Part shown: piece after piece, positions 8,345 through 24,861 of the stretch | Layout: each line of letters opens with the position of its first letter | Numbering within the stretch: position 1 is the stretch's first letter | Assembly: GCA_943787265.1 (NCBI GenBank) | Contig: CALSLT010000044.1 | Location: forward strand, 1-64,000 | Direction of reading: 5' to 3' | DNA: 64,000 bases | Source of the DNA: an uncultured Planctomycetaceae bacterium | GTDB lineage: Bacteria > Planctomycetota > Planctomycetia > Planctomycetales > Planctomycetaceae | Notes under the pieces: generated by a model | What the model was told of the DNA's origin: nothing | Databases searched by the model: none | What the model saw: the letters and a program-made list of their open reading frames with translations, nothing else | Translations under genes and position numbers: made by a program

Positions 8345-11300
8345 TCAACCTTTGGTAACTGACTCGCTCAGGTTAAGCAGGAGATGAGTCACCATCGTCC
8401 AGGCAGCCAGGTCGTTTGCGTCGAGCTGTTCGTTACGCGGAGACTCGCCCGCTGATAACAGCTTTGTCGCGGCATCCGGACTCTTTCGAAATTCGCTGAG
8501 ATACTCGGTCAGCAGAGTGGTCAAAGACTGCATCTCAGCGGCGTTCGGTTTTCTCGCCATGACGGAACGAAACGCGAATGTGACTCGCTCTTCGACGCTG
8601 GTGCCGCCTTCGCTGACCACTCGTTCCGCAAATTTTCGAGCGGCTTCGACGTACTGCACGTCGTTCATCAGGACAAGTGCCTGCAACGGCGTGTTGGTCC
8701 GTGCTCGTCGAACTGCGCAGGTTTCGCGATTCGGCGCGTCAAACGTTGCCATCGATGGTGGCGGGACCGTGCGTTTCCAGAACGTGTACATGCTGCGGCG
8801 AAAGAGCTTGTCGCCTTTATCCTGCACAAAGACGGACGTATTGCTTCCCCCGAAACCGACGGGCTTCCACAAGCCGGCTGGTTGATACGGCTTGACGCTC
8901 TTGCCGCCGATTTGGTCGATCAGCAATCCGCTAACAGCCAGAGCCTGATCTCGGATGGTCTCAGCGTCGAGCCGAAATCTTGGACCGCGGGCGAGCAATC
9001 GATTCTCCGGATCAGCGGCCAGCTTGTTGGGACTCACGCGGGAAGACTGCTGGTAGGTCGCGGACATTATGATCTGTTTCAGGCACCGTTTCACGTCCCA
9101 GCCTGATTCGACAAAGTCGATGGCGAGCCAGTCAAGCAGTTCAGGATGCGACGGCTGTTCGCCCTGCACGCCGAAGTCCTCCGCCGTTTTTACGAGCCCC
9201 GTGCCGAAGAACTGCTGCCAGAATCGGTTAACCGTTACTCGCGAGGTGAGTGGATGACTTGGCTGAACCAGCCACTGTGCGAGTCCCAATCGATTTGCTG
9301 GAGCATCCTTAACTGGCGGAGCAATCCACTCAGGAATCGCCGACGAAACTTTGTCACGTTTCTCGGTGTACTGTCCTCGTTCGAGGATGAAGGCCTGGCG
9401 TGGTTCCTTACGATCTTCCATGACGAGCGTTGCCGGAATTGCTTTCTCCAGATCGGCCAATTGCTTCTTCAGCGTCGCCTGAGACTTCAACGGTTCAGCC
9501 AACATCGCTCGCGAATCCGGATGCACATTCTGGACGTAGTGACGAGTTAACTGCTTTGTCTGGGCCTCGGTTCGTTTTGCTTTCTCGATGTCTAGCAGTT
9601 TTTGAATCGCGGCTGGGAGTGCAGGTTGCTTAACTTTCTTCCGGAATTGCTCCCACGCAAACAGCGAACGCTTTTGATGATCGGACAACGATCTTGAGGT
9701 GACGCCGGCTGTGTCCCAGTGAACGGTCCCTCCGACTTGTGTGAACGCCCAGCCGTTCAGCTCGGAACCAGCCTTCAGACCAACGACGGCTGCGTCCACT
9801 TCAAGGCGAACCCAATTTCCAAGTTCTGGCAGTTTGCCGATCAGCTTGTTGGACGTATTGTTTCTCCCGGCTCCGAAAGCCTTATCGGCTCCCCACGAGG
9901 CTCGATGTTCCCAGGAACCATCGTTGAACTGAAGCTGGATTGTTTGCGGAGGATTCTTCGGATCAAGGAATACCCATGCCACGAGTTTCGCATTTTCGCC
10001 GAGTTTCAATTTGGGATTTGCCCCGGTAAAGAAGTGCTGCGTAATCCCGTCACCCTCGCCGGTGCGAACTGTCGACTTCTTGCCGCTATGCACCGGGTGA
10101 TCGGGGGCTCCCACAAACAGCCACGGCGGATTGCCGTTGCCTTGAGCGTTGGCGCTCGCCGGAAGTTCATCATCAATCCAGACCAGCGTTTCTTCACTCA
10201 ACTCACCGAGTGGTTCCGTTGGTTTCGGATCGGTGTATTTGAAGTCAGCGAGAATCTTTTCAATTTGTTTGTTCGTCGCGGCGAGGTCCGTCGTGTACTG
10301 CTTCTTTTGCGCAATCTGCTCATTGGACGGAACCTGCACACTTGGCGGAGGCAACAAAGCGTTGCCGTCCATCGCCCGTTCGGTGAGGCTGAAGTAGTAC
10401 GAAAAGAGCTGGTAAAACTCTTTCTGCGTTAGCGGGTCGAACTTGTGATCATGGCAGGCCGCGCAGCCAGCGGTCAGTCCCAGCCAGACGGTCGCGGTTG
10501 TCTCAACCCGATCGACGGCGTACCGCATGTAATACTCGTCGTCGATCGAACCGCCTTCGCTCGTCGTGACGTTGCAGCGGTTGAATCCGGTGGCAACTCG
10601 TTGCTGCAGAGTGGGCTCGGGCAGAAGGTCGCCAGCTAGCTGCTCGATCGTGAATTCGTCAAACGACTGGTTGCGATTGAATGATTCAATCACCCAGTTG
10701 CGGTACAGCCAGATGGATCGTTCATTGTCCAGATGCAGGCCGTGCGTATCGCCATACCTGGCCGCGTCGAGCCAGTATCTCGCCATGTGTTCGCCATACT
10801 TATCGGATGCGAGCAGCCGATCGACAACGCGTTCGAATGCCTGCTCAGATTTGTCGGCCAGAAAATCATCGATCTCTTTAATCGTTGCCGGTAGTCCCGT
10901 CAGGTCGAGCGTCGCTCGACGGATTAGCGTTTCCTTTGACGCTCGATCTTCTGGCGTCAGTTTCGCGGCGGCAATCCGAGTATTCACGAAATGGTCGATC
11001 CGACTATTCGCCTGCCACTTTTTGACCGATTCCGGCGTCGACGGTTTTGTCGGAGGTTGAAACGCCCAGTGGCCGGACCATTCCGCACCACTATCAATCC
11101 ATTTTCTGATCAACTCGATTTGCTTCGTCGTCAATTTCTTACCGGAATCCGGCGGCGGCATTTTGAGATCGGAATCGGTCGTGGCAATCCGTTTGAAGAG
11201 TTCGCTCTGGCTACTCTTTCCTGCCACGACCGCAGTCTGACCGGAATCAAGTTTAGCGATCGCCGTCTCATGCCGGTCCAATCTCAAGTCGGACTCACGG

Positions 11301-11473
11301 TTGGCCTCGTCAGGGCCGTGGCACTTGAAGCAGTTGTCAGACAGAAGCGGCAGAATGTCGCGACTGAAATTGATGTCGTCATCCGCGGCTGAAACGCTGC
11401 AGGTTGCAGCGAAAACAAGCAGAAACGTGGAGAGCGTTTTTTGATTCGTCATGCGAAGGTCAAATACCAGCAA
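8345..11473 (-). CDS. PSD1-type protein (DUF1549 / DUF1553, PSCyt1 N-terminal cytochrome-like domain)
   Basis: 1042 aa. N-terminal signal and [19 protein letters not shown] motif (planctomycete cytochrome C), central DUF1549, C-terminal DUF1553 blocks, paralogous to 54903-58442. Paired with the DUF1501 gene immediately downstream. Confidence 0.85.
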
Positions 11474-11578
11474 ACTAAAGTGAGCCGAACGCGTTTGCGT
11501 CAGGCCGGATATAGAAGCAGGCCGAGGCCCAGGACTTTCACCCGCGGCTCTCGGCCTTCTTCAGATTTCAAGTTGAAA

Positions 11579-12919
11579 CTAAACCGCGGAAAAGATCGAA
11601 TTCTGAACTACGCCGGTGCTGTCTGCGAATGAGTCTCGTTCGATCTTCATTGACCGCAGAATGCTGAGGTAAACATTCGACATCAGCGTCTCACCGTCTC
11701 GCCAGTACGAGCCATGCTTCAATCCCATGTTTGAACCACCGGCGAGTAGCGTTGGGAGATTTCTTGGATTGTGAGTCGTGCTGGCACCGCTGCCGAACAG
11801 GACGATGCTGTTATCCAGCAGGCTGCCATCACGATCTTTGTAAGACTGCAGCTTCTGGAAGAAGTACGCCAGTTGCTCACTGAGGAATCGGTCGTACTTC
11901 GCGAAGTCCAACTGTCCGTCTTTGTCACCAGCGTGCGACAGGCTGTGGTGAGTCCGGCTGAGGCCGAGCTTTAGCGGGAACGTATCGCTGATGCCCATGC
12001 CGTCTTCGCGGTTCAGCATGAAGGCGACTGAGCGAGTGATGTCAGCATCAAACGCCAGCGCGATCAGGTCGAACATGTTGCGGTAGTACTCAGCCGGTTC
12101 GCCTTCTGGCGTAACGTCCAGATTGAGGTGCGAGTAGTCCTGCTCCTTGACCGGAATGTCGATCCACTTTTCAGACGCGATCAGACGAGACTCGACTTCG
12201 TTCAGCGAGGTCAGGTATTGGTCCATTTTCTGCTTGTCAGACTTGCCAAGCTTTCGATTGAATGTCTTTGCATTTTCCAGCACGGCGTCAACCAGTTTGA
12301 GTCGTTTCTTCAGGCTGTCGCGTTTTGATTCCAGCGAGGCTCGGTCACCACGGAACAGTCGATCGAAAACTCGCCGAGGGTTGTTCTCAGCGGGGATCGG
12401 TTTGCCTTCCAGGCTGTATGAGATCGTACCGGTTCTTGACAGGAAACCCGTTCCGGCGTCGATCGACAGTACCAGCGATGGTTGTCGGCAATGCTGTTTG
12501 GTGTGCAACGCAACGATCTGGTCGAGTCCGACCGAGTTGTATTTCCCCGGCTTTGAATTGTGCAGCGGAGCACCGGTCAACCACATATCCGAGCAGACGT
12601 GCGGATCAGCCTTCGGGCCGCTTGAGTGGTAGAGGCCGCCCATAAAGCTGAGGTGATCACGAAAACCGGCCAACGGTTCGGTCGACTTACCAAAAACAAA
12701 TTTGCCGTCTTCTTCGGCTGTCGGAAACCAGTGCCACTCCGGAATCGCGTTCTTCTGATTCGGCAACGACATGCCGTTGGCCGTGTACATCGCACAGAAC
12801 CGGCGAGGAGTTTGCTCGGCGACTTCAGATCCCATCGCGTCGAGAACTGGCAGAGCCAGTGAGGCTCCAGCGAGCCCTTTAAGAACGGCACGGCGATCAA
12901 GTTGAGTGGAGTTGGCCAT
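11579..12919 (-). CDS. DUF1552 domain protein, TAT signal
   Basis: Start taken at the internal Met (cat at 12917-12919) giving [24 protein letters not shown]. The ORF track extends to 12970. Classic partner of the DUF1592-family gene immediately upstream. Confidence 0.8.
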
Positions 12920-12991
12920 GAGGAATTCCGGGTGGGTAAGGTGGAACTCGTGAGGGAGGGTATGACTCAATCATCGGCAGCGGGTGGCAGG

Positions 12992-15900
12992 CTACTTCTC
13001 AAGAAACATTTTGCTGTTCACCACAAAACGAATCATATCCTGCATTCGGTAGCCACCGGCCCTCAATCCTACCCCGTTTTCCTTCAGGAACTCAATCTCG
13101 TTGTAGGTCAGGCTGCGACCAATCGCGTACGCCGACAGATGTTTCAGCAAACTGAACGCAACCTGATCAATCCGATCTTCCGCAAGATACGTCTTCAACG
13201 CGTTCAAATCGGCAATCTCGGTTTCATCCGGCAGTGTCGAACTGGCGTCAATCTTTTCATCGCGTTTCAACAGCCCACCGGCGTCGAAGTGTTCGAACGG
13301 AATCCCCCACGGATCAATTCCTTCGTGACACTTCGCACACCCCGGCTGATTGCGATGCTGCTCCAGCTTCTGACGAAGTGTCGGCTTCGAATTTTCCTCA
13401 GGCAGCGCCGGGACATTCGGTGGAGGATCGTCCGGCGGTTCGGCGATGATCTTTCGAGCCAGCCAGGCACCTCGCTTCACGGGGTTGGATTCTCGTCCGT
13501 CGGACAAACCGGCGAGGATTCCGGCGTTGGTTAAGACGCCTCCGAGATTCTTGCGGTCATGCGGAATGGCGACGAAGTCGAAACCCCGCTCCGTCCTGTC
13601 TCCGAGGTCGTAGTAGCTTGCAACGACTTCGTTGGCGACGATGAAGTCTGCTTGAACGAGGTCCCGCAATGGACGGTTCTGCCGAATGAGATATTGAACA
13701 AGCTGCACCGGTTCATCGCGCAACTGCCTCTTCGTGTCACGAGTTAACTTCGGGTATTGCCTGCGGTCGATCTCGACGACTTCAAACTTGTCAAGCTGCA
13801 GCCACTGCGAAACGAACTCGCTGGTGAACTGTTCGAACTGCGGGTCGCCGATCATTCGCTCAATTTCCGCATCGATCGAGTCGTGCAACTTGTTGCTGGT
13901 CGCCAGTTCTCGGATTTGCTCGTCCGGCGAAGCGTTCCACAAAAAGTACGACAACTTCGAAGCGAGTTCGTACTCGTCAAGAAGTTCGCCGTCCGGGCTG
14001 CTGCTGTTTTCAGTCAGAAACAGGAACTGCGGAGAAGTCAGTGCGACAAGAAGTGCATCCTTCACACTTTCCGTAAAATTCTGTGATTCTGAAAACGAAC
14101 TTTCATAAACGGCGAACAGGGATGCGGCTTCCACATCCGAAACAGGTCGACGAAACGCGCGAGTCGCAAAGTTTCGAATAACCTCTTTCGCATAAGCAGG
14201 CTGATCGTCTTTGTGATTCGAGTCGATAAAGATCCGCTGGTGAGTCGCCGGCGGCCAGGTCTCGTAGTAAGGACCTTCGAACTCGACAGACCGGACCAGC
14301 ATTCGCGGCATGTCGCGACCATCGGTGTACTCACTGCGGACGCCGATCTCGCGGACGCCGGCCAGGTAGTTGTCGTTTTCTTTCTGCACGTCCGGACTGG
14401 GGAAGTTGCCGATCGCCCCTTCAAAGACGTAAGTCGTGAGGTCAGTGCCGGATACCGTCTGAGCCTTCCCAACCTGAGTCAGCGTGCTGCCACAGTCACG
14501 CCGCAATCCAACGTGAACTCCGAGTCGTGGCACGCGTTGCTCGAACGTTGCAAATTGTTGGCCAGATTCAGATGCCTCATCAACACGGCTGAAGACGATG
14601 TGATGAGGATTTGCAGCTCCGCCGTATTTGCTGGTGACTTCAACCTCTCCGGCCGGCAGCCGCACCGTCAGGAAGGCTGGCTGATGCAGAGTGCCCGCGA
14701 AATGCCTCTCGCCTATTTGAAGATTGAGAGACTTGGGTTTCTCTGGCGGAGGCGGTTGGACGAACTTTCGTCCGGGCTCGATCAACGCCTGCAGTTCGGA
14801 AATTTCCAGGGCACGACGGAAGAAATGCACCTCATCAATTTCGCCCTTGAACTGCTGAGCGTCCTGAATCCGACCGATGTGCAGGGCGACGGCGGGGTTG
14901 TCTAGGTTAGTCGGAGCAACGGTTCCGGCAGCGACTTTGTAGCCGTTGACGAACAATTCCGTCTGCTCTGATCCGCGTCGGACGACAGCCGCTACGTGCT
15001 GCCATTTGTTCTTTCGAATGATGCCTGCCCGCGTGGCAACCGTGCCGTTCGGCTGGTTTGCCGGATTGACCGTTTCGATACGCAGCACGCCGCGGTTATT
15101 CGGCATGTCAAAATACCAGCCGTGCGTCCAACTGTATTTCCCCAGGCAGAAGATGCCGCTTTGACGCAGTTCGTGCGGACGTATCCAGGCGGCGATTGTG
15201 AAGTCACCCTCGCCCACGTTCATCGATTCGTCGCGAGAAATGACGACGGCATCGCCATTTCCATCCAACGAAATCGCCTGGCCGAACGGCGACTTCACAA
15301 ACTTCGCATCACCGACAAGTTGGCCTTCTTGCTTGAGACTCTCCGGACGCGAAGTCGTGTCCCCATTGAGTGACCAGGCTCCGGCAAGTTTCTCGGAAAG
15401 TCGCGAAGCATCGGAAGGAACAGTTTCGTCGTGAGGTGCCTCGAGAAAAACGCCGGCCTGATAAATGCCAGCTGCCTTAACATTCAAAGTCTGCGTGGAA
15501 TCGAGGTTGCTGATGGTTAATGACTCCGCAGCCGACTGATCGACAGGTTTAACGCCCGGCTCCAACAGCAGTCCATCGTCGTACTTCGCGGCTTTCACCG
15601 TCACGCGAAATTGTCCGTGGTCCGGTAATTCTCGCAGCGAGACTTTGAAGTTGGCCTGCGGTCCGTACGTGCTCTCAACCTGAAAGAGTTCGGCACTCGG
15701 CACCGACGGCCTCAGCAGCAACCCCTCCGGAACCGTCTGGTACGCAAGCCCTTTGGGATATCCATCCTTGCCGCGGACGCAGGCAAACACCGAGTGATAA
15801 ATGCTGACGTAATCTCTCCAGCCGCGAACTGTCGAGTTTCCCTGGTAACCCTCGTTGAATCGGTACTTAGTCCGCATGAAGAACGGATCAAAGTCGAAAG

Positions 15901-16441
15901 GTTTCTCTGCCGTGAGTTGAGTCACCACGAAATCCTGGTTCGGCAGGAGTCGATTCAACGCACCTAGGATCAGCCGCTCGGGAAACGGCTTCGGATTGAT
16001 GCCCGCTCCGAGTTCCATTCGAAAGTTCTGAATCGAGGGCTTCGCATCAACATCGACGATGCACCGGTCCAACGCCTTCTCGGCGACGTCGAAGTAAGCC
16101 TCTATCAGAAGAGGTGACAACTCCATCGTCTGACCGTTGTTGAGAAACCCATCCTTCGATACCCCGTCGGCAGGCAGGACGTCAGCAAGATTGTCCTCAA
16201 GCCCCAGGAGATCTCGCAGCGTGTTCCGATACTGAGCGACCGTCAGCCGCCGCACCGAACCATTCTTCTCCGCGTTGCGTGACCTGGCTGCGATCAACGC
16301 CTGCTCGATCCAGTCAACCAGCAATTTCCGTTCATCGGCGGTTGGCTGAGGCTCATCTTCCGGCGGCATCGCCTCGTCTTCTACTTGCTTCAGAATATCG
16401 TTCCAAAGAAACAGATGCCGATCTTCCAGCGAGCCATCCAA
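12992..16441 (-). CDS. DUF1592 / DUF1595 / DUF1587 / DUF1588 / DUF1585 multi-domain protein (PSCyt3 family); N-terminus frameshifted
   Basis: 1149-aa ORF. The expected N-terminal heme motif ([14 protein letters not shown]) is encoded by the separate ORF 16353-16556 in another frame, joined across a G5 run at about 16452-16456. The true gene is probably about 12992-16556 or longer. Confidence 0.75.
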
Positions 16442-16981
16442 CTGATCGACCCGAATCCCCCGAGGTCATCTCGTCAACGTTGTGACACCTCTGGCAGTAC
16501 TTCTGAATCAGCGGTTGGACCCTTAACTGCAAAGGCGTCTTGTTCTGCGGCCTCAAGGACTCTGCTCACTAGAACTAGGGACTACCAGAAAATACAAATG
16601 AAGATTCTTCATGCTCAGGCCAGAGATTTGGTCGTGCTGATTGGAAATCGTTCGCAAGGGTCTCTATTTCTAAACGATCATCGTTTGGTGGACCACCGGA
16701 TGTTGATCTCACGAAAACTTTCAATTTCATAGAAATCGCGCGAACAAAGTCGAGTGCTCGAGCATCTAACTGCCAACCAACGCGACGAGGTCAACTGACT
16801 TCGCTGCAACAAACAAGTCAACTCATAACGAATAGTCCGGGTACAAGCACGATGATGGTTTTCAGCTTAGGTCTTATAGGCGAACAGAGTGGATCGGAAA
16901 GGTTTGCTGATCAATCAGTGAATCTGCTCCCGAGCCCCCTGCGCTTGTGACACCTGGCAAAAACCTCTCGTGTGAGAACCA

Positions 16982-17016
16982 AAGCCCGGTGTCATCCAGA
17001 CATCGGGCTTTTTTCG
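16982..17016 (+). terminator. rho-independent terminator immediately upstream of the tRNA array
   Basis: GCCCGGTG-TCATCCAGA-CATCGGGC followed by TTTTTT. Confidence 0.55.
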
Positions 17017-17100
17017 TGTGCCGAGGGCACTTGATACGAGCTACCGCTCGTGAGTTGTGATCGGGAGCTGACCACGAAGGCACGAGAACTGACGGAACAT

Positions 17101-17173
17101 GGAGCGGTAGCTTAGACGGAAAAAGCGTCCGGTTGAAGCCCGGAAGAGACGGGTTCGAGCACCGTCCGCTCCA
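17101..17173 (+). tRNA. tRNA-Phe(GAA)
   Basis: Acceptor GGAGCGG/CCGCTCC, anticodon stem TCCGG/CCGGA, loop TTGAAGC, T-loop TTCGAGC. The T-stem has one mismatch. Confidence 0.7.
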
Positions 17174-17230
17174 CTTGGATGATTCGGATTCGACGAGTTC
17201 GAAGAAGCGACTCGATGGAAAACTCAATAC

Positions 17231-17303
17231 GCCCCGTTCTTCTAAAGGCTCAGGATGCTGGCCTCTCATGTCGGCGATGCAGGTTCGAATCCTGTACGGG
17301 GGT
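17231..17303 (+). tRNA. tRNA-Glu(CTC), slightly irregular
   Basis: Anticodon stem CTGGC/GTCGG, loop CTCTCAT; T-arm GCAGG-TTCGAAT-CCTGT. Position 1:72 is a G.G mismatch and the D/26 region is atypical. Confidence 0.55.
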
Positions 17304-17325
17304 ACTTTCAAAACCAAACGTACTT

Positions 17326-17401
17326 CGGGATGTAGCGTAGTCTGGCTAACGCGCCTGGTTTGGGGACCAGGAGATCGCAGGTTCAAATCCTGTCATCCCG
17401 A
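17326..17401 (+). tRNA. tRNA-Pro(TGG) variant with 8-nt anticodon loop
   Basis: Acceptor CGGGATG/CATCCCG (C1:G72, Pro-like), D-stem GCGT/ACGC, anticodon stem CCTGG/CCAGG enclosing TTTGGGGA (8 nt). Alternative fold is a 6-bp stem with a 6-nt loop. Confidence 0.55.
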
Positions 17402-17509
17402 CTGCGGCCCAGGCCGCTTTGATGCCGTGGTCAGCGGAAACGGATTACAACGCTGAGTGCGGCGAGGACGTCGTGGGCATCCAAAAGGGACGCTCATAAA
17501 ACGAAGTAG

Positions 17510-17583
17510 AGGGGTGTGGCGGAGTTGGTCACCGTGCCTGATTTGGAGTCAGGAGATCGCAGGTTCGAATCCTGTCACCCCGA
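17510..17583 (+). tRNA. tRNA-Pro(TGG)
   Basis: Anticodon stem CCTGA/TCAGG, loop TTTGGAG; D-stem GCGG/CCGT; T-arm GCAGG-TTCGAAT-CCTGT. Position 1:72 is A.G mismatched. Confidence 0.65.
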
Positions 17584-17667
17584 ATGCAGCCAAGGCTGCT
17601 TTGTTGTCGAGTTCAGCGGAATGACAAACAACACTGAAGGCGGCAAGTTCGCGAAAAGAAAAATCAT

Positions 17668-17740
17668 AGCCCGGTCGTTCAACGGTCAAGGACGCCGTCC
17701 TGATAAGGCGGAGACGAAGGTTCGACTCCTTCTCGGGCTA
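17668..17740 (+). tRNA. tRNA-Ile(GAT)
   Basis: Acceptor AGCCCGG/TCGGGCT, anticodon stem CCGTC/GGCGG, loop CTGATAA, T-arm GAAGG-TTCGACT-CCTTC. Confidence 0.8.
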
Positions 17741-17888
17741 CTGCGGCCCAGGCCGCTCTTAAGCCGTGGTCAGTGGAAACCGTAAACAACACTTACTGCG
17801 GCGAGTTCTTCTTTCCGCAAAGAAACAACTGAAAGACGAATGTCATGGCTACGTTACATCGTTTGAAACAGATACCCACCCTCAACGC

Positions 17889-17960
17889 GAGGTCGTGGTG
17901 TAACGGCAGCACATCGGTCTTTTAAACCGACCAGTGAGGGTTCGAATCCCTCCGGCCTCA
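17889..17960 (+). tRNA. tRNA-Lys(TTT)
   Basis: Acceptor GAGGTCG/CGGCCTC, D-stem GTGT/GCAC, anticodon stem TCGGT/ACCGA, loop CTTTTAA, T-arm GAGGG-TTCGAAT-CCCTC. Confidence 0.8.
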
Positions 17961-18007
17961 TTGAGCGGTGAGTCGCAACCAGCGGATACGCAAAAGCGAT
18001 TCGCCTG

Positions 18008-18079
18008 CGGCCCGTAGCTCAATGGTGAGAGCAGGCTCCTTATAAGGGCACGACGACGGTTCGAATCCGTCCGGGCCGA
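18008..18079 (+). tRNA. tRNA-Ile(TAT) candidate
   Basis: Acceptor CGGCCCG/CGGGCCG, D-stem GCTC/GAGC, anticodon stem GGCTC/GGGCA (27:43 G.A), loop CTTATAA, T-arm GACGG-TTCGAAT-CCGTC. Confidence 0.6.
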
Positions 18080-18093
18080 ATGAGAGGATCACA

Positions 18094-18339
18094 ATGAAAA
18101 CCAAACAGTACAGACAATGTCGACTTCAACGTGGCAACGCCGTTCGAGTGAGCTGGTTGCCGGCTCAATACGCAGTCGAAGGACGAGTTCTAAAGCTGCG
18201 TGACAACGACGTATGGTCAAACGGCTGGGTCGTCAAAGACGCATACAAAGAAAGCGATCGAGACGTGGCTCCTGATACTCGGCGAGCGGTCAGGAAACAT
18301 CGACAAGCCTCGGGAGACGCTCTTCCGAGGCGTGCATAA
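18094..18339 (+). CDS. hypothetical small basic protein (81 aa) inside the tRNA array
   Basis: ATG preceded by GAGAGGA at appropriate spacing. Arg/Lys-rich, no recognisable domain. Confidence 0.4.
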   Translation: MKTKQYRQCRLQRGNAVRVSWLPAQYAVEGRVLKLRDNDVWSNGWVVKDAYKESDRDVAPDTRRAVRKHRQASGDALPRRA

Positions 18340-18346
18340 CGAAGCG

Positions 18347-18419
18347 GGATCGAGGTGTTAGCGGCAGCACATCCGGCTCTTAACCGGACAGGTGAGGGTT
18401 CGAGCCCCTCCGATCCCAA
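18347..18419 (+). tRNA. tRNA-Lys(CTT)
   Basis: Acceptor GGGATCG/CGATCCC, anticodon stem TCCGG/CCGGA, loop CTCTTAA, T-arm GAGGG-TTCGAGC-CCCTC. Confidence 0.8.
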
Positions 18420-18524
18420 TTCTATTTTTACTCTCGACGCGACTCGGAAATCACCCAACTGCGATCAGGATGCGCACACACCGCACGCTCAAAAACAGTT
18501 CATCAATCATCACTCAACGAAGCA

Positions 18525-18596
18525 CTAGTCGTCCAGCGGCTAAGACACCGCACTCGTAATGCGGCAACGTGAGTTCGAGTCTCACCTGGTGCTCTA
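18525..18596 (+). tRNA. tRNA-Thr(CGT)
   Basis: Acceptor GCACTAG/CTGGTGC, anticodon stem CCGCA/TGCGG, loop CTCGTAA, T-arm GTGAG-TTCGAGT-CTCAC. D-stem pairing is weak. Confidence 0.65.
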
Positions 18597-18628
18597 ACGG
18601 TTCTTTGACAATCTGGCACTGAAATATC

Positions 18629-18699
18629 GCGCCCATGATGTAGCGGTAGCCTACCGCCTTGCCAAGGCGGAAGTGCGGGTTCAACTCCCGCTGGGCGCT
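18629..18699 (+). tRNA. tRNA-Gly(GCC)
   Basis: Acceptor GCGCCCA/TGGGCGC, D-stem GTAG/CTAC, anticodon stem CCGCC/GGCGG, loop TTGCCAA, T-arm GCGGG-TTCAACT-CCCGC. The 8-9 connector is 4 nt and position 26 is missing. Confidence 0.65.
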
Positions 18700-18884
18700 T
18701 GCAAACCGGGTGTTTGCATCGGGTGGCGTTGGCGTGTCGGGTCTGCTCCGAGGTCGGTGTTCGCACCGGGCACGTCGATGGGCTTCGGTTTGCTGAAGAG
18801 AAAATTACGCGGAACGTTCAAGCCGAATCGGTTGACGATCGCATGTCGACTTCAATCGGCTATCGATCCAAGCGTTCCGTTTGG

Positions 18885-18956
18885 TGCGGTGTGGCCAAAT
18901 GGTAAGGCAGCTCCCTGTTAAGGAGACGATTGCAGGTTCGAATCCTGCTACCGCAG
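18885..18956 (+). tRNA. tRNA-Asn(GTT)
   Basis: T1:A72 and discriminator G; anticodon stem GCTCC/GGAGA, loop CTGTTAA, T-arm GCAGG-TTCGAAT-CCTGC. Confidence 0.75.
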
Positions 18957-19019
18957 CTTGTGTGCAAGTCCAGAGTTGAGTGTCGAGTGTCCATAGATAC
19001 TGGCTGACTCTCATCTCCG

Positions 19020-19104
19020 GACTCTTTCGGAAGCCAACCGGCTGGATCAGGAGCCTGTTTCGAAAACAGGTGCGGGCGAACGTCCGTTGTGGGTTCAAGT
19101 CCCA
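19020..19104 (+). tRNA. tRNA-Ser(CGA), long variable arm
   Basis: 85 nt. Acceptor GGAAGCC/GGCTTCC, discriminator G, anticodon stem CCTGT/ACAGG, loop TTCGAAA, T-arm GTGGG-TTCAAGT-CCCAC. Confidence 0.8.
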
Positions 19105-19140
19105 CGGCTTCCGCTCTGCAGAACATCGGCCAAGAGCACT

Positions 19141-19190
19141 GTCCGTTCGATGTTCAGCGTTGGATGTTGAATGTTCGATGTTCATCACGT
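19141..19190. repeat. GATGTTCGA-type short repeat cluster (copy A)
   Basis: CGATGTTCAGCGTTGGATGTTGAATGTTCGATGTTCATC; a related palindromic cluster lies at 24937-25020. Confidence 0.6.
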
Positions 19191-19260
19191 GCCTCTGACC
19201 GAGCGGCAAAGGTACCGGGTTTCCATTCCGGACAGGCGGGTTCGACTCCCGCGAGGCACT
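19189..19260 (+). tRNA. tRNA-Gly(TCC)
   Basis: Acceptor GTGCCTC/GAGGCAC, discriminator T, anticodon stem CCGGG/TCCGG, loop TTTCCAT, T-arm GCGGG-TTCGACT-CCCGC. D-stem is weak. Confidence 0.65.
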
Positions 19261-19350
19261 CTTGAGACAGGGATCGCTAGCAGAAACACGGAACAGTAGG
19301 ACCGACGGGGCGGTGGCTGTTCCGTGTTTGCTGCGGGGAGTGATCCACTC

Positions 19351-19425
19351 TGCGGGGTAGTTTCTGCTGGTAGAAATACGCGACTTTGAATCGCGTGTCT
19401 GCAGGTTCGATTCCTGCCCCCGCAA
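19351..19425 (+). tRNA. tRNA-Gln(TTG)
   Basis: T1:A72; D-stem GTTT/AAAT; anticodon stem CGCGA/TCGCG, loop CTTTGAA; T-arm GCAGG-TTCGATT-CCTGC. Confidence 0.8.
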
Positions 19426-19495
19426 CTGCGTACGACATGGTCGGCTTGTTCGAGTTTCCGCTCGGACAAGGATCGAAAATCAATCGGAAGAGACT

Positions 19496-19566
19496 ATTGC
19501 GGGATCGTTTAACGGCAAGACACAGCGCTCTGAACGCTGAGATGTTGGTTCGAATCCAGCTCCCGT
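19496..19566 (+). tRNA. tRNA-Gln(CTG)
   Basis: Acceptor TGCGGGA/TCCCGTA, D-stem GTTT/AGAC, anticodon stem CAGCG/CGCTG, loop CTCTGAA, T-arm GTTGG-TTCGAAT-CCAGC. Confidence 0.75.
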
Positions 19567-19633
19567 AACTTCGCGTGATCGCATCGTTCGATCTGCCGCC
19601 AGGTGATCAAGTTGCGATTACACAACGACTACG

Positions 19634-19718
19634 GAAGTCATCCGGCTGGATGAGGGCTCTGTCTTGAAAACAGAGGCGGGTAAACGCCCGTTGTGGGTTC
19701 GAGGCCCACGGCTTCCGC
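19634..19718 (+). tRNA. tRNA-Ser(TGA), long variable arm
   Basis: 85 nt. Acceptor GGAAGTC/GGCTTCC, discriminator G, anticodon stem TCTGT/ACAGA, loop CTTGAAA, T-arm GTGGG-TTCGAGG-CCCAC. Confidence 0.8.
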
Positions 19719-19795
19719 CTCGGAAAGGCAGAAACCAGAAGACAGAAGGATGGATAGTTTTCAGCCTTCGGCCTTTTGATTTCAGCCTTTCACAC

Positions 19796-19868
19796 GGTCC
19801 TGTGGCCTAGCGGCGAAGGCAACTCCCTTACAAGGAGACAATCGGTGGTTCGAGTCCACCCAGGATCA
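19796..19868 (+). tRNA. tRNA-Val(TAC)
   Basis: Acceptor GGTCCTG/CAGGATC, anticodon arm ACTCC-CTTACAA-GGAGA (compare E. coli CCTCCCTTACAAGGAGG), T-arm GGTGG-TTCGAGT-CCACC. Confidence 0.75.
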
Positions 19869-19873
19869 CTTAG

Positions 19874-19943
19874 TCCCGAGTATGCCAATGGAAGAGCAGT
19901 CCGAATTGTCGGATGGTTGCAGGTTCGATTCCTGCCTCGGGGC
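19874..19943 (+). tRNA. tRNA-like gene, anticodon undetermined (degenerate)
   Basis: Good acceptor (TCCCGAG/CTCGGGG) and T-arm (GCAGG-TTCGATT-CCTGC). The anticodon arm folds only as GTCCG-AATTGT-CGGAT (6-nt loop) or with an 8-nt loop; the D-stem is unpaired. 70 nt. Confidence 0.35.
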
Positions 19944-19949
19944 CCACAC

Positions 19950-20022
19950 GGCACCGTAGCCCAACGGCAGAGGCAGTCGTTTCAAACGCAACAAAGTGTG
20001 AGTTCGAATCTCACCGGTGCCA
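19950..20022 (+). tRNA. class-I (short variable arm) tRNA with Leu anticodon CAA
   Basis: Acceptor GGCACCG/CGGTGCC, D-arm GCCC-AACGGCAG-AGGC, anticodon stem GTCGT/GCAAC (one C.A mismatch), loop TTCAAAC, variable AAAGT only, T-arm GTGAG-TTCGAAT-CTCAC. Confidence 0.5.
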
Positions 20023-20039
20023 TTCAAAACTTACAACAC

Positions 20040-20114
20040 GCCCCTGCAGAGCAGCCAGGAGTGCTCGCCATCCTGTCACGATGGAGACCGTCGGTTCGAA
20101 TCCGATCGGGGGTG
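20040..20114 (+). tRNA. tRNA-Asp(GTC)
   Basis: D-stem GAGC/GCTC, anticodon stem CCATC/GATGG, loop CTGTCAC, discriminator G, T-arm GTCGG-TTCGAAT-CCGAT. Confidence 0.8.
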
Positions 20115-20191
20115 CTTGTGAAAGGCGGAAGGATGAGGGCAGAAGGATGATTTGAATTCAGCCTTCATCCTTCTGACGTCAGCCTTCATAC

Positions 20192-20263
20192 GACGCGGTA
20201 GCCCAATGCAGAGGCAACCGGTTTAAGCCCGGTCAAGTGCGGGTTCGAGTCCCGCTCGCGTCA
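20192..20263 (+). tRNA. class-I (short variable arm) tRNA with Leu anticodon TAA
   Basis: Acceptor GACGCGG/TCGCGTC, D-arm GCCC-AATGCAG-AGGC, perfect anticodon stem ACCGG/CCGGT, loop TTTAAGC, variable CAAGT, T-arm GCGGG-TTCGAGT-CCCGC. Confidence 0.55.
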
Positions 20264-20280
20264 CTCGAAGAAATCATTGC

Positions 20281-20352
20281 GGCCCATTCGTCTAGTGGAG
20301 AGGACACCTGGTTTTCATCCAGGCAACGGGAGTTCGATTCTCCCATGGGTCA
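20281..20352 (+). tRNA. tRNA-Glu(TTC)
   Basis: TTCGTCTAGTGGAGAGGACACC D-arm as in E. coli tRNA-Glu; anticodon stem CCTGG/CCAGG, loop TTTTCAT; T-arm GGGAG-TTCGATT-CTCCC. Confidence 0.8.
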
Positions 20353-20367
20353 CTTTCGAAAATACAC

Positions 20368-20441
20368 AGCATCGTAGCCCAATTGGCAGAGGCGCCTGGT
20401 TTAGGTCCAGGAGGTTGAGAGTTCGAATCTCTCCGGTGCTA
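20368..20441 (+). tRNA. class-I (short variable arm) tRNA with Leu anticodon TAG
   Basis: Acceptor AGCATCG/CGGTGCT, D-arm GCCC-AATTGGCAG-AGGC, anticodon stem CCTGG/CCAGG, loop TTTAGGT, variable AGGTT, T-arm GAGAG-TTCGAAT-CTCTC. Confidence 0.55.
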
Positions 20442-20524
20442 CTTGAGTCAAAAGATGAGAGACCAGAGGCCAGAGGTTTTGCAGCATTCACGCTGGTCTC
20501 TGGTCTCTCGACTCTGAACTCAAT

Positions 20525-20610
20525 GGGCTTTGCTCCTCACGGCGGTCTGTAAAACCGTTGTCGGAAAACAAGTGAGGTGGTGACGAGAGGTTCAATTCCT
20601 TCAAGGCCCA
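20525..20610 (+). pseudogene. tRNA-Tyr(GTA)-like gene lacking a D-arm (aberrant or pseudo-tRNA)
   Basis: Acceptor GGGCTTT/AAGGCCC, discriminator A; anticodon stem GCGGT/ACCGT, loop CTGTAAA; long extra region; T-loop TTCAATT. Only 10 nt lie between acceptor and anticodon stem, so no D-arm can form. Confidence 0.4.
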
Positions 20611-20627
20611 ATCCAGAACGAAATCAC

Positions 20628-20710
20628 GGCCAGGTGGTGGAACGGTAGACACGCGACGCTCAGAACGTCGTGCCGCTTAAGGCATGGGAGTTCGAATCTC
20701 CCCCTGGTCA
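20628..20710 (+). tRNA. tRNA-Leu(CAG), canonical class II
   Basis: 83 nt. Acceptor GGCCAGG/CCTGGTC, discriminator A, GGTGGTGGAACGGTAGACACGC D-arm, anticodon stem CGACG/CGTCG, loop CTCAGAA, long variable arm, T-arm GGGAG-TTCGAAT-CTCCC. Confidence 0.85.
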
Positions 20711-20905
20711 TTAAAGAGTTGAAAGTAAATAGTTGATTGCTGATAGCAACTGCGAACATAGATGTCAGCAGCCGACTCCATCTCTCAACTATCGACTTTC
20801 AACCATCTACTTAATGCAGGTGTGGCAGGTGCCCAGTTGGCTCTCATAAGGCCGACCTCCCCGGATCGTTACCGGGACCTGCGACTTGCAATTTCTGATC
20901 AACAT

Positions 20906-20974
20906 CGCGGGTGGGCGAGTGCTCATCGGGGCCTCATAAGCCTCGACGGCCAGGTGCGACTCCTGGACCCGCTT
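20906..20974 (+). pseudogene. initiator tRNA-fMet(CAT)-like gene with truncated D-loop
   Basis: 5' CGCGGGTGG as in E. coli tRNA-fMet; C1 unpaired with position 72; anticodon stem GGGGC/GCCTC with three G:C pairs at 29-31:39-41; loop CTCATAA. T-arm CCAGG-TGCGACT-CCTGG has G at position 55. Only 69 nt; the D-arm is about 4-5 nt short. Confidence 0.4.
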
Positions 20975-20986
20975 CTTTCGCAACAC

Positions 20987-21062
20987 GGCCGAGTACGCAA
21001 TCAGGCAAAGCGGCGAGGTCGAGAGCCTCGTGATTTTGTGGGTTCGACTCCCACCTCGGTCA
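20987..21062 (+). tRNA. class-I tRNA-like with Leu anticodon GAG
   Basis: Acceptor GGCCGAG/CTCGGTC, anticodon stem CGAGG/CCTCG, loop TCGAGAG (C at position 33), T-arm GTGGG-TTCGACT-CCCAC. D-arm irregular. 76 nt. Confidence 0.4.
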
Positions 21063-21151
21063 CTTTGAGTTGAGAGTGGATTGTTCAGAGTCCGGAGGCT
21101 TTTCCTAAGCGGTACCTCTGGACTCTCGTCTCTCAACTCTGGTCTCAACCC

Positions 21152-21223
21152 GACTCCGTGGTCCAACGGCAACGACACCTGCGTGACATGCAGGAGACGA
21201 TGGTTCAACTCCATCCGGGGTCA
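21152..21223 (+). tRNA. tRNA-Val(GAC)
   Basis: Acceptor GACTCCG/CGGGGTC, anticodon stem CCTGC/GCAGG, loop GTGACAT, T-arm GATGG-TTCAACT-CCATC. Confidence 0.75.
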
Positions 21224-21234
21224 TTCCATTTGCC

Positions 21235-21313
21235 ATTAGTTATTTGTCATTTCTCATCGGTCATTGGGAGCCTGTTTACCGGGCAATGACAATTGAGAAA
21301 TGACAAATAACTA
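21235..21313. repeat. AT-rich 31-bp near-perfect inverted repeat (21-bp perfect core) with 17-bp loop
   Basis: TTAGTTATTTGTCATTTCTCA(TCGGTCATTG) ... (CAATGACAAT)TGAGAAATGACAAATAACTAA. About 25% GC in a 55% GC background. Confidence 0.8.
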
Positions 21314-21327
21314 ATGACAAATACTCC

Positions 21328-21398
21328 GGGCTGCTCGTCTAATGGGAAGACGCTTGGCTTGCAACCAGGTAATCGGGGTTCGACTCCCCGGCGGTCCA
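21328..21398 (+). tRNA. tRNA-Ala(TGC)
   Basis: G3.U70 Ala identity pair; D-stem GTCT/AGAC; anticodon stem CTTGG/CCAGG, loop CTTGCAA; T-arm CGGGG-TTCGACT-CCCCG. Confidence 0.85.
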
Positions 21399-21408
21399 CT
21401 TGAAGAAG

Positions 21409-21479
21409 TGGGGTCATGGTCCAATGGGACGACTCCAGCATGGCATGCTGGCAATCCGGGTTCGATTCCCGGTGACTCC
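21409..21479 (+). tRNA. tRNA-Ala(GGC)
   Basis: G3.U70; anticodon stem CCAGC/GCTGG, loop ATGGCAT; T-arm CCGGG-TTCGATT-CCCGG. Confidence 0.8.
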
Positions 21480-21495
21480 ATTCTCAAATCGATAC

Positions 21496-21583
21496 GGAAG
21501 GTAGCCGGATACGGTTTGCCGGACCGCACTGCTAATGCGTGTGCCTGTCATGGGTCATGTGGGTTCGAATCCCATGCCTTCCG
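21496..21583 (+). tRNA. tRNA-Ser(GCT), long variable arm
   Basis: 88 nt. Acceptor GGAAGGT/GCCTTCC, discriminator G, D-stem CCGG/CCGG, anticodon loop CTGCTAA, T-arm GTGGG-TTCGAAT-CCCAT. Confidence 0.8.
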
Positions 21584-21602
21584 CTCTTTGCAACAACAAT
21601 CT

Positions 21603-21674
21603 GGCTCGATGGTGAAACGGAGATCATCCCTTGCTTCTAACAAGGAGTTCCGGGTTCGATTCCTGGTCGGGCTA
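21603..21674 (+). tRNA. tRNA-Arg(TCT)
   Basis: D-stem GTGA/TCAT, perfect anticodon stem CCTTG/CAAGG, loop CTTCTAA, T-arm CCGGG-TTCGATT-CCTGG. Confidence 0.8.
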
Positions 21675-21689
21675 CTGGAGGAAAATGAA

Positions 21690-22157
21690 ATGAACTCAAC
21701 ATCTCATGTCATCGATAGTTTTGCCGGCGAGTACCGGTTTCTGTCGAACTTCTATCCGTCAACGATTTTCGTAGACGGATTCAGATATCCGACGGTCGAG
21801 CACGCGTTCCAGGCAGCGAAGACTGCTGACAGCGCTGCGAAACAGAAAATCGCAACAGTTCAATCGGCACTCCGAGCCAAGAGTCTCGGTCGTCAAGTAC
21901 GACTGAGAAAGGACTGGGAAGCGGTTAAGGTTGCCGTGATGAGGCAGTTTGTGACTCTGAAATTTGAGTCGCATCCCGATCTGGCAGAAATGCTGCTTGA
22001 TACGGGCGACGCGAAGCTCATTGAAGGCAACAGTTGGAATGATACCTACTGGGGCGTCTGCGGAGGTCGCGGAAAGAATCACCTCGGCAAAATTCTGATG
22101 GGAATCAGAACTCAGCTTCTGGTAACGAATCGTGAAACGACAGGGAGTATCGGCTAA
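21690..22157 (+). CDS. NADAR (DUF1768 / YbiA-like) domain protein
   Basis: GGAGG 8 nt upstream of ATG 21690. FAGEYRFLSNFYPSTIFVDGFRYPTVEHAFQAAKT ... WNDTYWGVCGGRGKNHLGKILMGIRTQL matches the NADAR consensus. The ORF-track N-terminus (21342) overlaps tRNAs and is rejected. Confidence 0.85.
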   Translation: MNSTSHVIDSFAGEYRFLSNFYPSTIFVDGFRYPTVEHAFQAAKTADSAAKQKIATVQSALRAKSLGRQVRLRKDWEAVKVAVMRQFVTLKFESHPDLAEMLLDTGDAKLIEGNSWNDTYWGVCGGRGKNHLGKILMGIRTQLLVTNRETTGSIG

Positions 22158-22173
22158 GCCCGCTGCTCCGACG

Positions 22174-22264
22174 GAAGGGCAACCCGATGGGCGACGGGAT
22201 CCGGTTGGAAGCCGGGCGAGTGCGTTAACGCGTGCCTTGCGGGTTCGATTCCCGCTCCTTCCGC
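22174..22264 (+). tRNA. tRNA-Ser(GGA), long variable arm
   Basis: 91 nt. Acceptor GGAAGGG/TCCTTCC, discriminator G, anticodon stem TCCGG/CCGGG, loop TTGGAAG, T-arm GCGGG-TTCGATT-CCCGC. Confidence 0.8.
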
Positions 22265-22280
22265 TGCGTGTGAGGATCCA

Positions 22281-22877
22281 ATGACTGCTTATCGACAAGT
22301 TCGAGCGAACTACGACCGGGCATCGATTGTCGTCTACCAGGCGTACAACGATGCGATTGCCGATTCAGCAATCGATGCACAGAAGTTTGTGGCTCCGTTT
22401 TCATTCAACCGAATGACCTGGATCAAGTCGTCGTTTCTGTGGCTGATGGAACGGAGCGGCTGGGCGACGAAGGCGAATCAAACTCGGATTCTGGCCATCC
22501 GAATCAGTCGGTCAGGATGGGAGCGGGCATTGTCGCAAGGAGTGTTGACGTCTTTCGAACCTAGCGTGCATCGCTCGGTCGACGCGTGGAGACTGCAGTT
22601 CGAAGCCTCGCCGGTTCACGTTCAATGGGATCCGGAAAGGTCGATTCACGGCAGGAAACTGGAGCATCGAGCGATTCAAGTCGGTATCAGCCGGCAGCTC
22701 ATCGAGGAATACGTGTCGTCGTGGATTCAGAGCATCGAAGACATGACCCAATTTGCAAACAAGGTCAGGCGAATGCGCATGGCTGGTAAACACTCTGAAG
22801 CTCGTCGGCTGCTTCCGATCGAACGGGAATACTCCGTTCAATCTGAAACCCGACGACAACTCGGAATTTCTAAATGA
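22281..22877 (+). CDS. DUF4291-like hypothetical protein (198 aa)
   Basis: GAGGAT RBS. The motif FSFNRMTWIKSSFLWLMERSGWATK resembles DUF4291-family proteins; this assignment is from memory and tentative. Confidence 0.6.
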   Translation: MTAYRQVRANYDRASIVVYQAYNDAIADSAIDAQKFVAPFSFNRMTWIKSSFLWLMERSGWATKANQTRILAIRISRSGWERALSQGVLTSFEPSVHRSVDAWRLQFEASPVHVQWDPERSIHGRKLEHRAIQVGISRQLIEEYVSSWIQSIEDMTQFANKVRRMRMAGKHSEARRLLPIEREYSVQSETRRQLGISK

Positions 22878-22971
22878 CTGACAGACTCAACCGGTCAAAC
22901 GTCCAGTCTGGAAAACCTGACGTTCGAAGTGCAACGCGTTTGCACGCAACTGGCATGAAAGGAGCTCGACG

Positions 22972-23751
22972 ATGATCACAACAAGAACTACAGACCTGCG
23001 TCGGCTCAACAGTGCGACGAAGTATCCGTCGATTGCGACGTATCACGCACTCGGAGAGAAGGGGCGGTTATTGCCAGACCATGTTGACTTGGGTGACCAG
23101 CCGTTGGTGTTGACTGAAAAAGTCGACGGTACCAATAGTCGAATTATCCTCATGCCGGACGGTGCTTACCTGATCGGGAGTCGTGAAGAGTTGCTCCACG
23201 CAAAGGGCGATCTGATTCACAACCCGGCGATGGGTATCGTCGATGCTTTGAGATCGTTCGCTGACAGTCTGGTTGAGATACGAAGTCCGGCCCCGGATGT
23301 CATCACAACGATCTATGTTGAGACTTACGGCGGCAAGACGACGGCGGCTGCAAAGCAGTACACGGGCGAGCGTCGTATCGGGTTTCGCCTGTTCGACGTA
23401 AGCATCGTGCCGATTGGGCAGATCTATTCCACACCGGAACAGATTTCGGCCTGGCGTGAATCAGGTGGGCAGAGTTTCTTCTCTGAAACTCAACTGGCTG
23501 ACTTTGCAGCGGAATCAGGCGTTGAACTGACGCCTCGAATTCAGTGCGAAAGTCAGTTGCCGGTGTCAATTTCTGAAACGCATGAGTGGCTGAAGAGTCA
23601 TCTTCCAGCAACACAGGTTGCACTGGACGAGAAGGCTGGCGGTAAGCCGGAAGGCCTCGTCGTTCGTACGGTCGATCGAAAGCGAATCGCCAAGATTCGT
23701 TTCGAAGACTACGAGCGACACGACCGACGGACTTCGAAATCAGCGCGATAA
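22972..23751 (+). CDS. ATP-dependent RNA ligase, Rnl2-like nucleotidyltransferase family
   Basis: AAAGGAG RBS. Motif I KVDGTN (TEKVDGTNSRII), motif IV EGLVVR, motif V lysine (AKIRFEDY). The N-terminal KYPSIATY block is typical of RNA-ligase adenylyltransferases. Confidence 0.8.
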   Translation: MITTRTTDLRRLNSATKYPSIATYHALGEKGRLLPDHVDLGDQPLVLTEKVDGTNSRIILMPDGAYLIGSREELLHAKGDLIHNPAMGIVDALRSFADSLVEIRSPAPDVITTIYVETYGGKTTAAAKQYTGERRIGFRLFDVSIVPIGQIYSTPEQISAWRESGGQSFFSETQLADFAAESGVELTPRIQCESQLPVSISETHEWLKSHLPATQVALDEKAGGKPEGLVVRTVDRKRIAKIRFEDYERHDRRTSKSAR

Positions 23752-23814
23752 CTTGTCGCTCAATGTTTGTCAGAGATGTACGGTCGCCGTCCGTTGTGGC
23801 GGCGACCGATTTAT

Positions 23815-23889
23815 GGTGTCCGTAGTGTAAGGGTCTTGCACGCGACTCTGTGGAAGTCGAAGAGACGGGTTCAACTCCCGCCGGACACC
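23815..23889 (+). tRNA. tRNA-His(GTG) with encoded G-1
   Basis: G-1 and discriminator C73; D-stem GTGT/GCAC; anticodon stem CGACT/AGTCG, loop CTGTGGA; T-loop TTCAACT. Confidence 0.8.
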
Positions 23890-24001
23890 CTCCACCAAAC
23901 CGAGCGTTTGGATCGGATAGCCGTTGGCGTGCATTTTCAATAAGCACGCTGAATCGGCTTGATCGATCAAAGGCGAATTAACTAAGGGAAGGAATGGTTC
24001 G

Positions 24002-24598
24002 ATGGTGGCCTCTGTTCTGGAGAGACCGACGCTTGTGCTGAATCGCAACTGGCAGCCTGTTGGCGTTGCCACGGTTGCTAAGGCACTGACGAAGGTCTGG
24101 AACAAAACGGCTCGGATTGTCGATCCGGCCGACTATCAGCAGTACTCATGGGAGAACTGGTCAGAGCTGCGTCCTGAGGACGGTGATCTGTTTATTCAGA
24201 CGAACCGGTTTCAGCTGCGGGTTCCGGAAGTGGTCACGCTGACGAAGTACGACCGACTTCCAAAGAGCGCTGTGACCTTCAGTCGAAGAAACGTTTTTAA
24301 GCGTGACAAGTTCATGTGTCAGTACTGCGGTGCTCAACCGGGCAGCGAGGAACTGACGATTGACCACGTCCTGCCGCGTGCTCAGGGAGGAACGTCCACT
24401 TGGGCTAACTGCGTGCTGGCGTGCATCGACTGCAATTCGCGGAAGGCCGACCGAACTCCGGAGCAGGCTCGGATGCCGTTGCGGTCGACGCCGGTCCGTC
24501 CAAAGTGGAAACCGGTCTACGCGTCACGCGGAATTCGTATCGAAAGCTGGTCGCGGTTCATTAGCGAAAGCTACTGGAACGCCGAACTGGAGAAGTAG
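24002..24598 (+). CDS. HNH endonuclease family protein
   Basis: C-terminal CQYCG...HVLPRAQGG...NCVLACIDCNSRKADR HNH zinc-binding motif. Confidence 0.8.
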   Translation: MVASVLERPTLVLNRNWQPVGVATVAKALTKVWNKTARIVDPADYQQYSWENWSELRPEDGDLFIQTNRFQLRVPEVVTLTKYDRLPKSAVTFSRRNVFKRDKFMCQYCGAQPGSEELTIDHVLPRAQGGTSTWANCVLACIDCNSRKADRTPEQARMPLRSTPVRPKWKPVYASRGIRIESWSRFISESYWNAELEK

Positions 24599-24749: not shown

Positions 24750-24783
24750 GCTGCGGCATGGCCGCTTTGTTTTGAGATAATTG

Positions 24784-24857: not shown

Positions 24858-24861
24858 CTGA

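Follow-up and report, generated by a model that had tools for sequence, protein, structure and literature searches.

An eight-nucleotide anticodon loop in a planctomycete tRNA-Pro(UGG) gene is almost certainly an assembly artefact within an L-array

SufB2, which suppresses +1 frameshift mutations at CCC-N sites, is a tRNA-Pro with an additional G on the 3′ side of G37, denoted G37a (PMC7803779). According to Tran et al. (2015; PMC4758250), a stretch counts as a tRNA array unit when it contains 20 or more tRNA genes and has two or more of them per kb. The corresponding class of L-arrays, as described in PMC4758250 and PMC8421152, comprises up to 43 genes, spreads horizontally, is linked to an HNH gene and includes Planctomycetes among its carrier phyla; the HNH gene is conserved beside L-operons, and the tRNAs of L-arrays supplement a housekeeping set and are induced by translational stress (PMC8421152). 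In addition, homopolymer indels are a recognised residual error in long-read assemblies (PMC9262707).

The DNA stretch analysed here (64,000 nucleotides from an uncultured Planctomycetaceae bacterium, hereafter termed the window) contains a tRNA array that spans 8.3 kb on one strand, and 30 of its 40 tRNAs reach the Rfam gathering score. With the gene number and density given in Table 1, it falls within the definition of a tRNA array unit. The flanks comprise typical planctomycete genes, namely PSCyt1/PSCyt2/PSD1, PSD2-5, DUF1501, DUF1552 and a Ser/Thr kinase. At the array-less site of three loci with a left-flank PSD gene that is 89-91% identical (L087, L088 and L089), we observed other genes and no tRNAs. 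Moreover, arrays from metagenomes and from further planctomycete MAGs have their genes arranged in the same way (Phe-Glu-Pro-Ile(GAU)-Lys(UUU)-Ile(UAU)...). This patchy presence in close relatives, together with the same order elsewhere, corresponds to the horizontal spread of L-arrays, and the array likewise harbors the linked homing-endonuclease gene (HNH, PF01844, E = 1.8e-14). The array is an insertion in a planctomycete chromosome that was acquired horizontally.

A phage origin of the array was considered and rejected in view of the typical planctomycete flanks (PSCyt, PSD, DUF1501) and PHROG matches that were incidental, which mark the array as an island in the chromosome instead of part of a phage genome; phage records queried with the array by megablast gave no match. 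In planctomycete MAGs (L007-L010, L012-L014), homologues of the RNA ligase encoded in the array adjoin tRNA arrays. A tie to the cyanobacterial L-arrays through this ligase was dropped, since no tRNA array lies within 10 kb of its homologues in Nostoc, Calothrix, Nocardia, Corallococcus and Dactylosporangium. This distribution, with arrays beside the ligase in planctomycetes but not in the cyanobacterial, actinobacterial or myxobacterial loci checked, suggests that RNA repair is served by a module found specifically in planctomycete arrays.

Several further features of the array were observed. At positions 19874-19946 ARAGORN reports a 'tRNA-??? (tt)' with the 6-nt loop AATTGT, which lies below the Rfam tRNA threshold. 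As the same sequence is found unchanged in the independent assembly L119 described below, it is not an assembly error; it is probably a decayed tRNA. The array is devoid of tRNA-Tyr, and the related arrays L008, L010, L012 and L105 have Tyr(GUA). It encodes tRNA-Ile(UAU), an uncommon isoacceptor in bacteria, at 18008-18079, and the same array position is occupied by this tRNA in L012, L014, L092, L101, L102 and L105. Finally, a 72-nt repeat follows Pro-1, Pro-2 and Ile(GAU) at 17368-17439, 17550-17621 and 17707-17778, respectively. It consists of a tRNA 3′ half and a spacer with the hairpin GCGGCC-cag-GCCGC, and in other strains (P0126, P0130) type-1 tRNA-Pro is bordered by the same spacer motif. 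The repeat may act as a signal for processing or as a cassette for duplication, and the breaks of short-read contigs in the array may be due to it.

Table 1. Features of the tRNA array and its left flank, in window coordinates, with bit scores on the Rfam tRNA model.
Feature	Position	Strand	Observation
40-tRNA-gene array	17101-25412	+	ARAGORN; all genes on the + strand; 4.8 genes per kb; holds the type-1 tRNA-Pro gene
Genes inside the array	21729-24598	+	NADAR (Pfam-matched part approximately 21729-22157), DUF4291 (22281-22877), RNA ligase PF09414 (22972-23751), HNH endonuclease (24002-24598)
tRNA-Pro(UGG) type 1 (Pro-1)	17326-17401	+	C1-G72, A73, G35, G36, G37; loop almost certainly UUUGGGA, with one spurious G in the window; ARAGORN tggg (window) versus tgg (L119, L120), by direct alignment; 61.5 bits (window) versus 69.5 bits (L119)
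G4 run	17362-17365	+	G3 in independent assemblies; window CGCGCCTGGTTTGGGGACCAGG versus L119 and L120 CGCGCCTGGTTT-GGGACCAGG; one G almost certainly an insertion error
tRNA-Pro(UGG) type 2 (Pro-2)	17510-17583	+	Loop UUUGGAG (A37), A1·G72 mismatch; ARAGORN tRNA-Pro(tgg); identical in L119 and L120; untouched, 61.4 bits in both window and L119
PSD/DUF1592 gene	12992-16609	-	1205 aa in other assemblies; shortened in the window by insertions
C5 run	16457-16461		C4 elsewhere; frameshifts the PSD/DUF1592 gene; homologues intact with 1205 aa
C3 run	16520-16522		C2 elsewhere; surplus base
G3 run	16578-16580		G2 elsewhere; surplus base where the PSD gene encodes its signal peptide
A5 run	17120-17124	+	A4 elsewhere; surplus base in the D loop of tRNA-Phe; 53.4 bits (window) versus 54.0 bits (L119)
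G5 run	17298-17302	+	G4 elsewhere; surplus base in the 3′ acceptor strand of tRNA-Glu(CUC); 37.1 bits (window) versus 44.7 bits (L119)
Five single extra bases, window only	21097, 21281, 21549, 21555, 24603		L001-L004 concordant against the window

As given in the window, the third of the 40 tRNA genes folds into a cloverleaf in which the stem CCTGG/CCAGG encloses the 8-nt loop TTTGGGGA, the letters of the entire gene being CGGGATGTAGCGTAGTCTGGCTAACGCG-CCTGG-TTTGGGGA-CCAGG-AGATC-GCAGGTTCAAATCCTGT-CATCCCGA. ARAGORN returns 'tRNA-??? anticodon (tggg)', that is a 4-base anticodon, at 17326-17402, and the Rfam tRNA model (RF00005) accommodates the loop as a local insertion. Fold, ARAGORN and Rfam are thus in line with the stem and the 8-nt loop that the earlier note had described for the window. 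The gene contains the proline identity elements C1-G72, A73, G35 and G36 together with an anticodon that is UGG by sequence, and the CCA end is not encoded.

Look-ups of proteins encoded nearby provided contigs for comparison. The DUF4291 protein led to contigs starting at window position 20278, 3′ of the tRNA-Pro gene, and the HXXSHH protein to a 2-kb contig only. Contigs encoding proteins identical to those of the window are 99.8-100% identical to it, and they differ mostly by single-base gaps where the extra base is always that of the window. As positions 17189-20277 were covered by none of the first contigs of this set, a spurious ORF overlapping the tRNA was used as a search handle. Removal of one G from the window converts the 62-aa ORF (17268-17456) into an ORF of 76 aa, and a related contig that bears the array edge (JGI 3300072015, the contig of P0001) has a called gene of this same length at the corresponding position. 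Exact look-ups of the spurious ORFs with 62, 59, 76 and 73 aa yielded none in the protein collection. Likewise, we observed no match when scanning metagenomes with a 32-mer from the 5′ half of the tRNA, from which the nearest relatives in JGI deviate at a single D-loop position, or when scanning viral contigs for the exact 8-nt anticodon arm. When the G-deleted ORF was used as the query of a homology search, eight spurious-ORF proteins were retrieved that stem from assemblies in ENA, Logan and JGI. Each of them reads ...LVWDQEIAGSNP... / ...SGCSVVWLTRLVWDQEIAGSNPV... over the anticodon loop, corresponding to the GGG frame, and one of them led to the two assemblies that cover the tRNA, L119 and L120.

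L119 (ENA ERZ27295583, contig k141_120394, 6632 bp) aligns to window positions 13781-20418 (6.6 kb) with 0 mismatches and six single-base gaps. Each gap corresponds to a surplus window base inside a homopolymer, located at 16457, 16520, 16578, 17120, 17298 and, within the anticodon loop, 17362, with the run lengths given in Table 1. L120 (ENA ERZ23498362) shows seven substitutions relative to the window and therefore represents a slightly different strain. It covers three of the shortened runs and has all three in the short form, with the loop reading GGG. The loop is TTTGGGA in both assemblies, and ARAGORN reports a plain tRNA-Pro(tgg) in each. The type-1 gene (L119 3541-3615, L120 616-690) scores 69.5 bits on RF00005 and combines the 7-nt loop U33-U34-G35-G36-G37 with a cloverleaf accepted by the tRNA covariance model. 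The extra G is seen in neither of these two independent assemblies, and one of them is identical to the window apart from six extra window bases, so that an assembly error is almost certain. The absence of the base is read directly from these alignments, from which we infer a technical origin as opposed to a private mutation.

The surplus bases extend beyond the loop. Across approximately 25 kb compared with independent assemblies, the window contains 11 extra bases and lacks none, with 0-4 substitutions per contig. All 11 fall in 16457-24603, comprising the array and its left edge, and indel differences are absent from 7729-16456 and 24604-32878. L117 (Logan ERR14888773) agrees on the four insertions up to 17120, and L001, L002, L003 and L004, obtained from JGI, ENA and Logan and in mutual agreement, reveal five further window-only bases within 20278-32878. 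Nine of the 11 bases lengthen an existing base or run; those at 21549 and 21555 are located outside homopolymers in the variable arm of tRNA-Ser(GCU) and might reflect real variation. The errors are insertions only, clustered in or beside the array (approximately 8 kb) and not evenly spread, and this pattern, like the two bases outside homopolymers, counts against the artefact reading. An excess of indels over substitutions that runs in one direction and damages genes nevertheless points to a technical run-length error and does not fit with strain divergence.

The damage is most apparent for the PSD/DUF1592 gene in the left flank. In the window this gene extends over 12992-16441 (-) and encodes 1149 aa, as compared with approximately 1205 aa in its more than 100 closest homologues, and its CXXCH motif lies in another reading frame, just upstream, beyond a five-G run on the coding strand. 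The gene is intact in L117 with 1205 aa, and the independent version restores the full-length protein (MKNLHLYFLVVLVLVS...). The appearance of a 5′-truncated pseudogene (1149 or 1125 aa) is thus due to three of these insertions. The truncated product P0124 (1125 aa) is present in NCBI/ENA on a contig of 117,599 bp, which places the error in the deposited record. Likewise, the three insertion-bearing tRNAs, Pro-1, Glu and Phe, all score higher in L119 than in the window.

The comparison was extended to 310 ARAGORN calls in 25 array-bearing loci. The other tRNA-Pro genes in related loci (22 of 22) have a 7-nt loop, so that the comparison with orthologous arrays proposed in the earlier note yields no 8-nt loop in any related array. 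The genes of L105, L110 and L109 differ from the window's type-1 gene by only 1-2 D-loop bases and contain the loop TTTGGGA. The remaining non-triplet calls of the survey are one tRNA-like remnant in the window's own array and two that fail the Rfam threshold. The latter two, with a 4-base anticodon at L014 11391-11481 and L093 2763-2854, were therefore not counted as support for natural 8-nt loops. A different deviation was observed in the Planctomycetaceae MAG HK-STAS-PLAN-18 (L012), where the syntenic tRNA-Pro(UGG) at 5394-5486 contains approximately 20 nt inserted in the variable region, resulting in a total of 93 nt. Its anticodon loop is normal with 7 nt, and the same array contains further over-long calls, Gly(acc) with 94 nt and Pro(cgg) with 96 nt.

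The adjacent type-2 gene had been taken for a canonical 7-nt copy. It is indeed called as tRNA-Pro(tgg), but it carries A37 (TTTGGAG) and an A·G mismatch at positions 1-72. Corresponding genes with A37 are present in L119 (3724-3797), L120 (799-872), L092 (131-204), L102 (12130-12203), L007 (2083-2157) and L008 (8412-8488). Their loop reads UUUGGAG or UUUGGAA, and A37 thus recurs in several arrays, with G37 being retained in the sister array L010. The A1·G72 pair replaces C1-G72 in the type-2 tRNA-Pro of the window, L119, L120, L092, L106 and L102. In bacterial tRNA-Pro, G37 is the target for methylation by TrmD. The combination of A37 and A1·G72 is real, conserved and genuinely divergent, and judged by its sequence this tRNA could be TrmD-independent or nuclease-evading.

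The strongest alternative is that GGGG arose by a genuine, recent mutation or is present as a minority allele in the sampled population, which would generate a SufB2-like tRNA-Pro(UGG) with G37a and +1 frameshifting at CCN-N. Such an allele would be tolerated, since the adjoining type-2 tRNA-Pro and the housekeeping genes would supply normal decoding. The lesion is exactly that of SufB2 (PMC7803779), and a redundant tRNA-Pro is located 109 bp downstream; however, L119 has GGG with zero substitutions relative to the window, and five more +1 run-length differences occur within the same 0.9 kb, one of them wrecking a conserved gene. With C1-G72, A73, G35 and G36 kept, proline charging would still be expected, and selection on array tRNAs is relaxed as they are supernumerary (PMC8421152), yet the 8-nt loop is not conserved, being absent from related arrays, and indels that run in one direction in all 11 cases fit better with technical bias than with mutation. 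We therefore consider a real allele very unlikely, and for the populations sampled in ERZ27295583 and ERZ23498362 it is effectively refuted. There is a slimmer chance still that the fourth G is real in the window's source sample, as a natural G37a tRNA-Pro(UGG) in a mobile array whose A37 neighbour keeps decoding normal; the G37a allele would then provide its carrier with low-level +1 frameshifting at CCN-N sites. That the window is right and the short-read assemblies (MEGAHIT, Logan contigs) each dropped one base at these runs is barely conceivable, as nothing specific speaks for it in this comparison between assemblies, at least four independent datasets are concordant (ERZ27295583, ERZ23498362, ERR14888773, JGI 3300028829), the shorter runs restore an intact 1205-aa ORF matching all homologues and raise the tRNA scores, and short-read assembly is not known to fail at runs of 2-5 bases.

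Taken together, we are nearly certain that the 8-nt loop is an assembly artefact and that the gene is an ordinary, canonical tRNA-Pro(UGG) in a planctomycete L-array. The earlier note had hedged that the loop could stem from a single-base homopolymer insertion, and this is backed by L119 with its 0 mismatches, by L120 and by the direction of all 11 extra window bases. The 8-nt-loop tRNA-Pro(UGG) paralog that it put forward exists in the window text, but the fourth G is missing in L119 and L120; the further reading as a natural paralog and possible +1 frameshift suppressor is unsupported, because the two assemblies and every related array lack this G. The same note had regarded GGG instead of GGGG in raw reads as decisive against it, and GGG is what we observed in L119 and L120, at the level of assemblies rather than raw reads.

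According to the artefact reading, the fourth G of the run would be a homopolymer insertion error in the source assembly of the window, and 16457-24603 would be a patch in which this assembly has repeatedly made runs one base too long. The tRNA would then have the 7-nt loop UUUGGGA and would read CCN codons as normal triplets; it is presumably expressed and functional, and its gene would belong to a horizontally acquired array of the L-array type in a planctomycete chromosome. The correction keeps a quadruplet-decoding tRNA from being wrongly reported as occurring in nature. Moreover, it flags the region 16457-24603 of the deposited contig as error-rich, with a false pseudogene and at least three distorted tRNA genes. 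Unusual anticodon loops mined from tRNA arrays should therefore first be checked against independent assemblies or reads.

As compared with the errors of long-read or unpolished assemblies (PMC9262707), the window shows the same single-base run-length errors that give apparent frameshifts, whereas here only insertions occur and these are clustered in approximately 8 kb around the array. With the Salmonella SufB2/sufA6 tRNA-Pro (PMC7803779) the window gene shares the extra G directly 3′ of G37 and the retained proline identity elements, and the structural likeness noted previously was accurate in that the window text matches G37a of SufB2. However, SufB2 is derived from ProL with the anticodon GGG and was selected in the laboratory, whereas the window gene has the anticodon UGG. 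The defining trait, an expanded 8-nt loop with an extra nucleotide by position 37, appears in the window text only and not in L119, L120 or the 22 other genes. The likeness to SufB2 is structurally exact but accidental, as it results from a sequencing error, the extra G being missing from independent assemblies. With the canonical bacterial tRNA-Pro(UGG) of the ProM type, the gene has in common C1-G72, A73, U34 G35 G36 G37 and, in L119 and L120, UUUGGGA; unlike it, the window gene resides in an accessory tRNA array and not at a housekeeping locus. The array itself resembles the L-array or array unit, as described in the 2021 report (PMC8421152) and PMC4758250, in its 40 tRNAs on one strand, its patchy presence and its linked HNH gene. 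Cyanobacterial arrays have RtcB and DpsA as neighbours, whereas the window array contains NADAR, DUF4291 and the PF09414 RNA ligase instead. The underlying biology is thus that of a 40-gene L-array in a planctomycete, a kind of locus that is already known.
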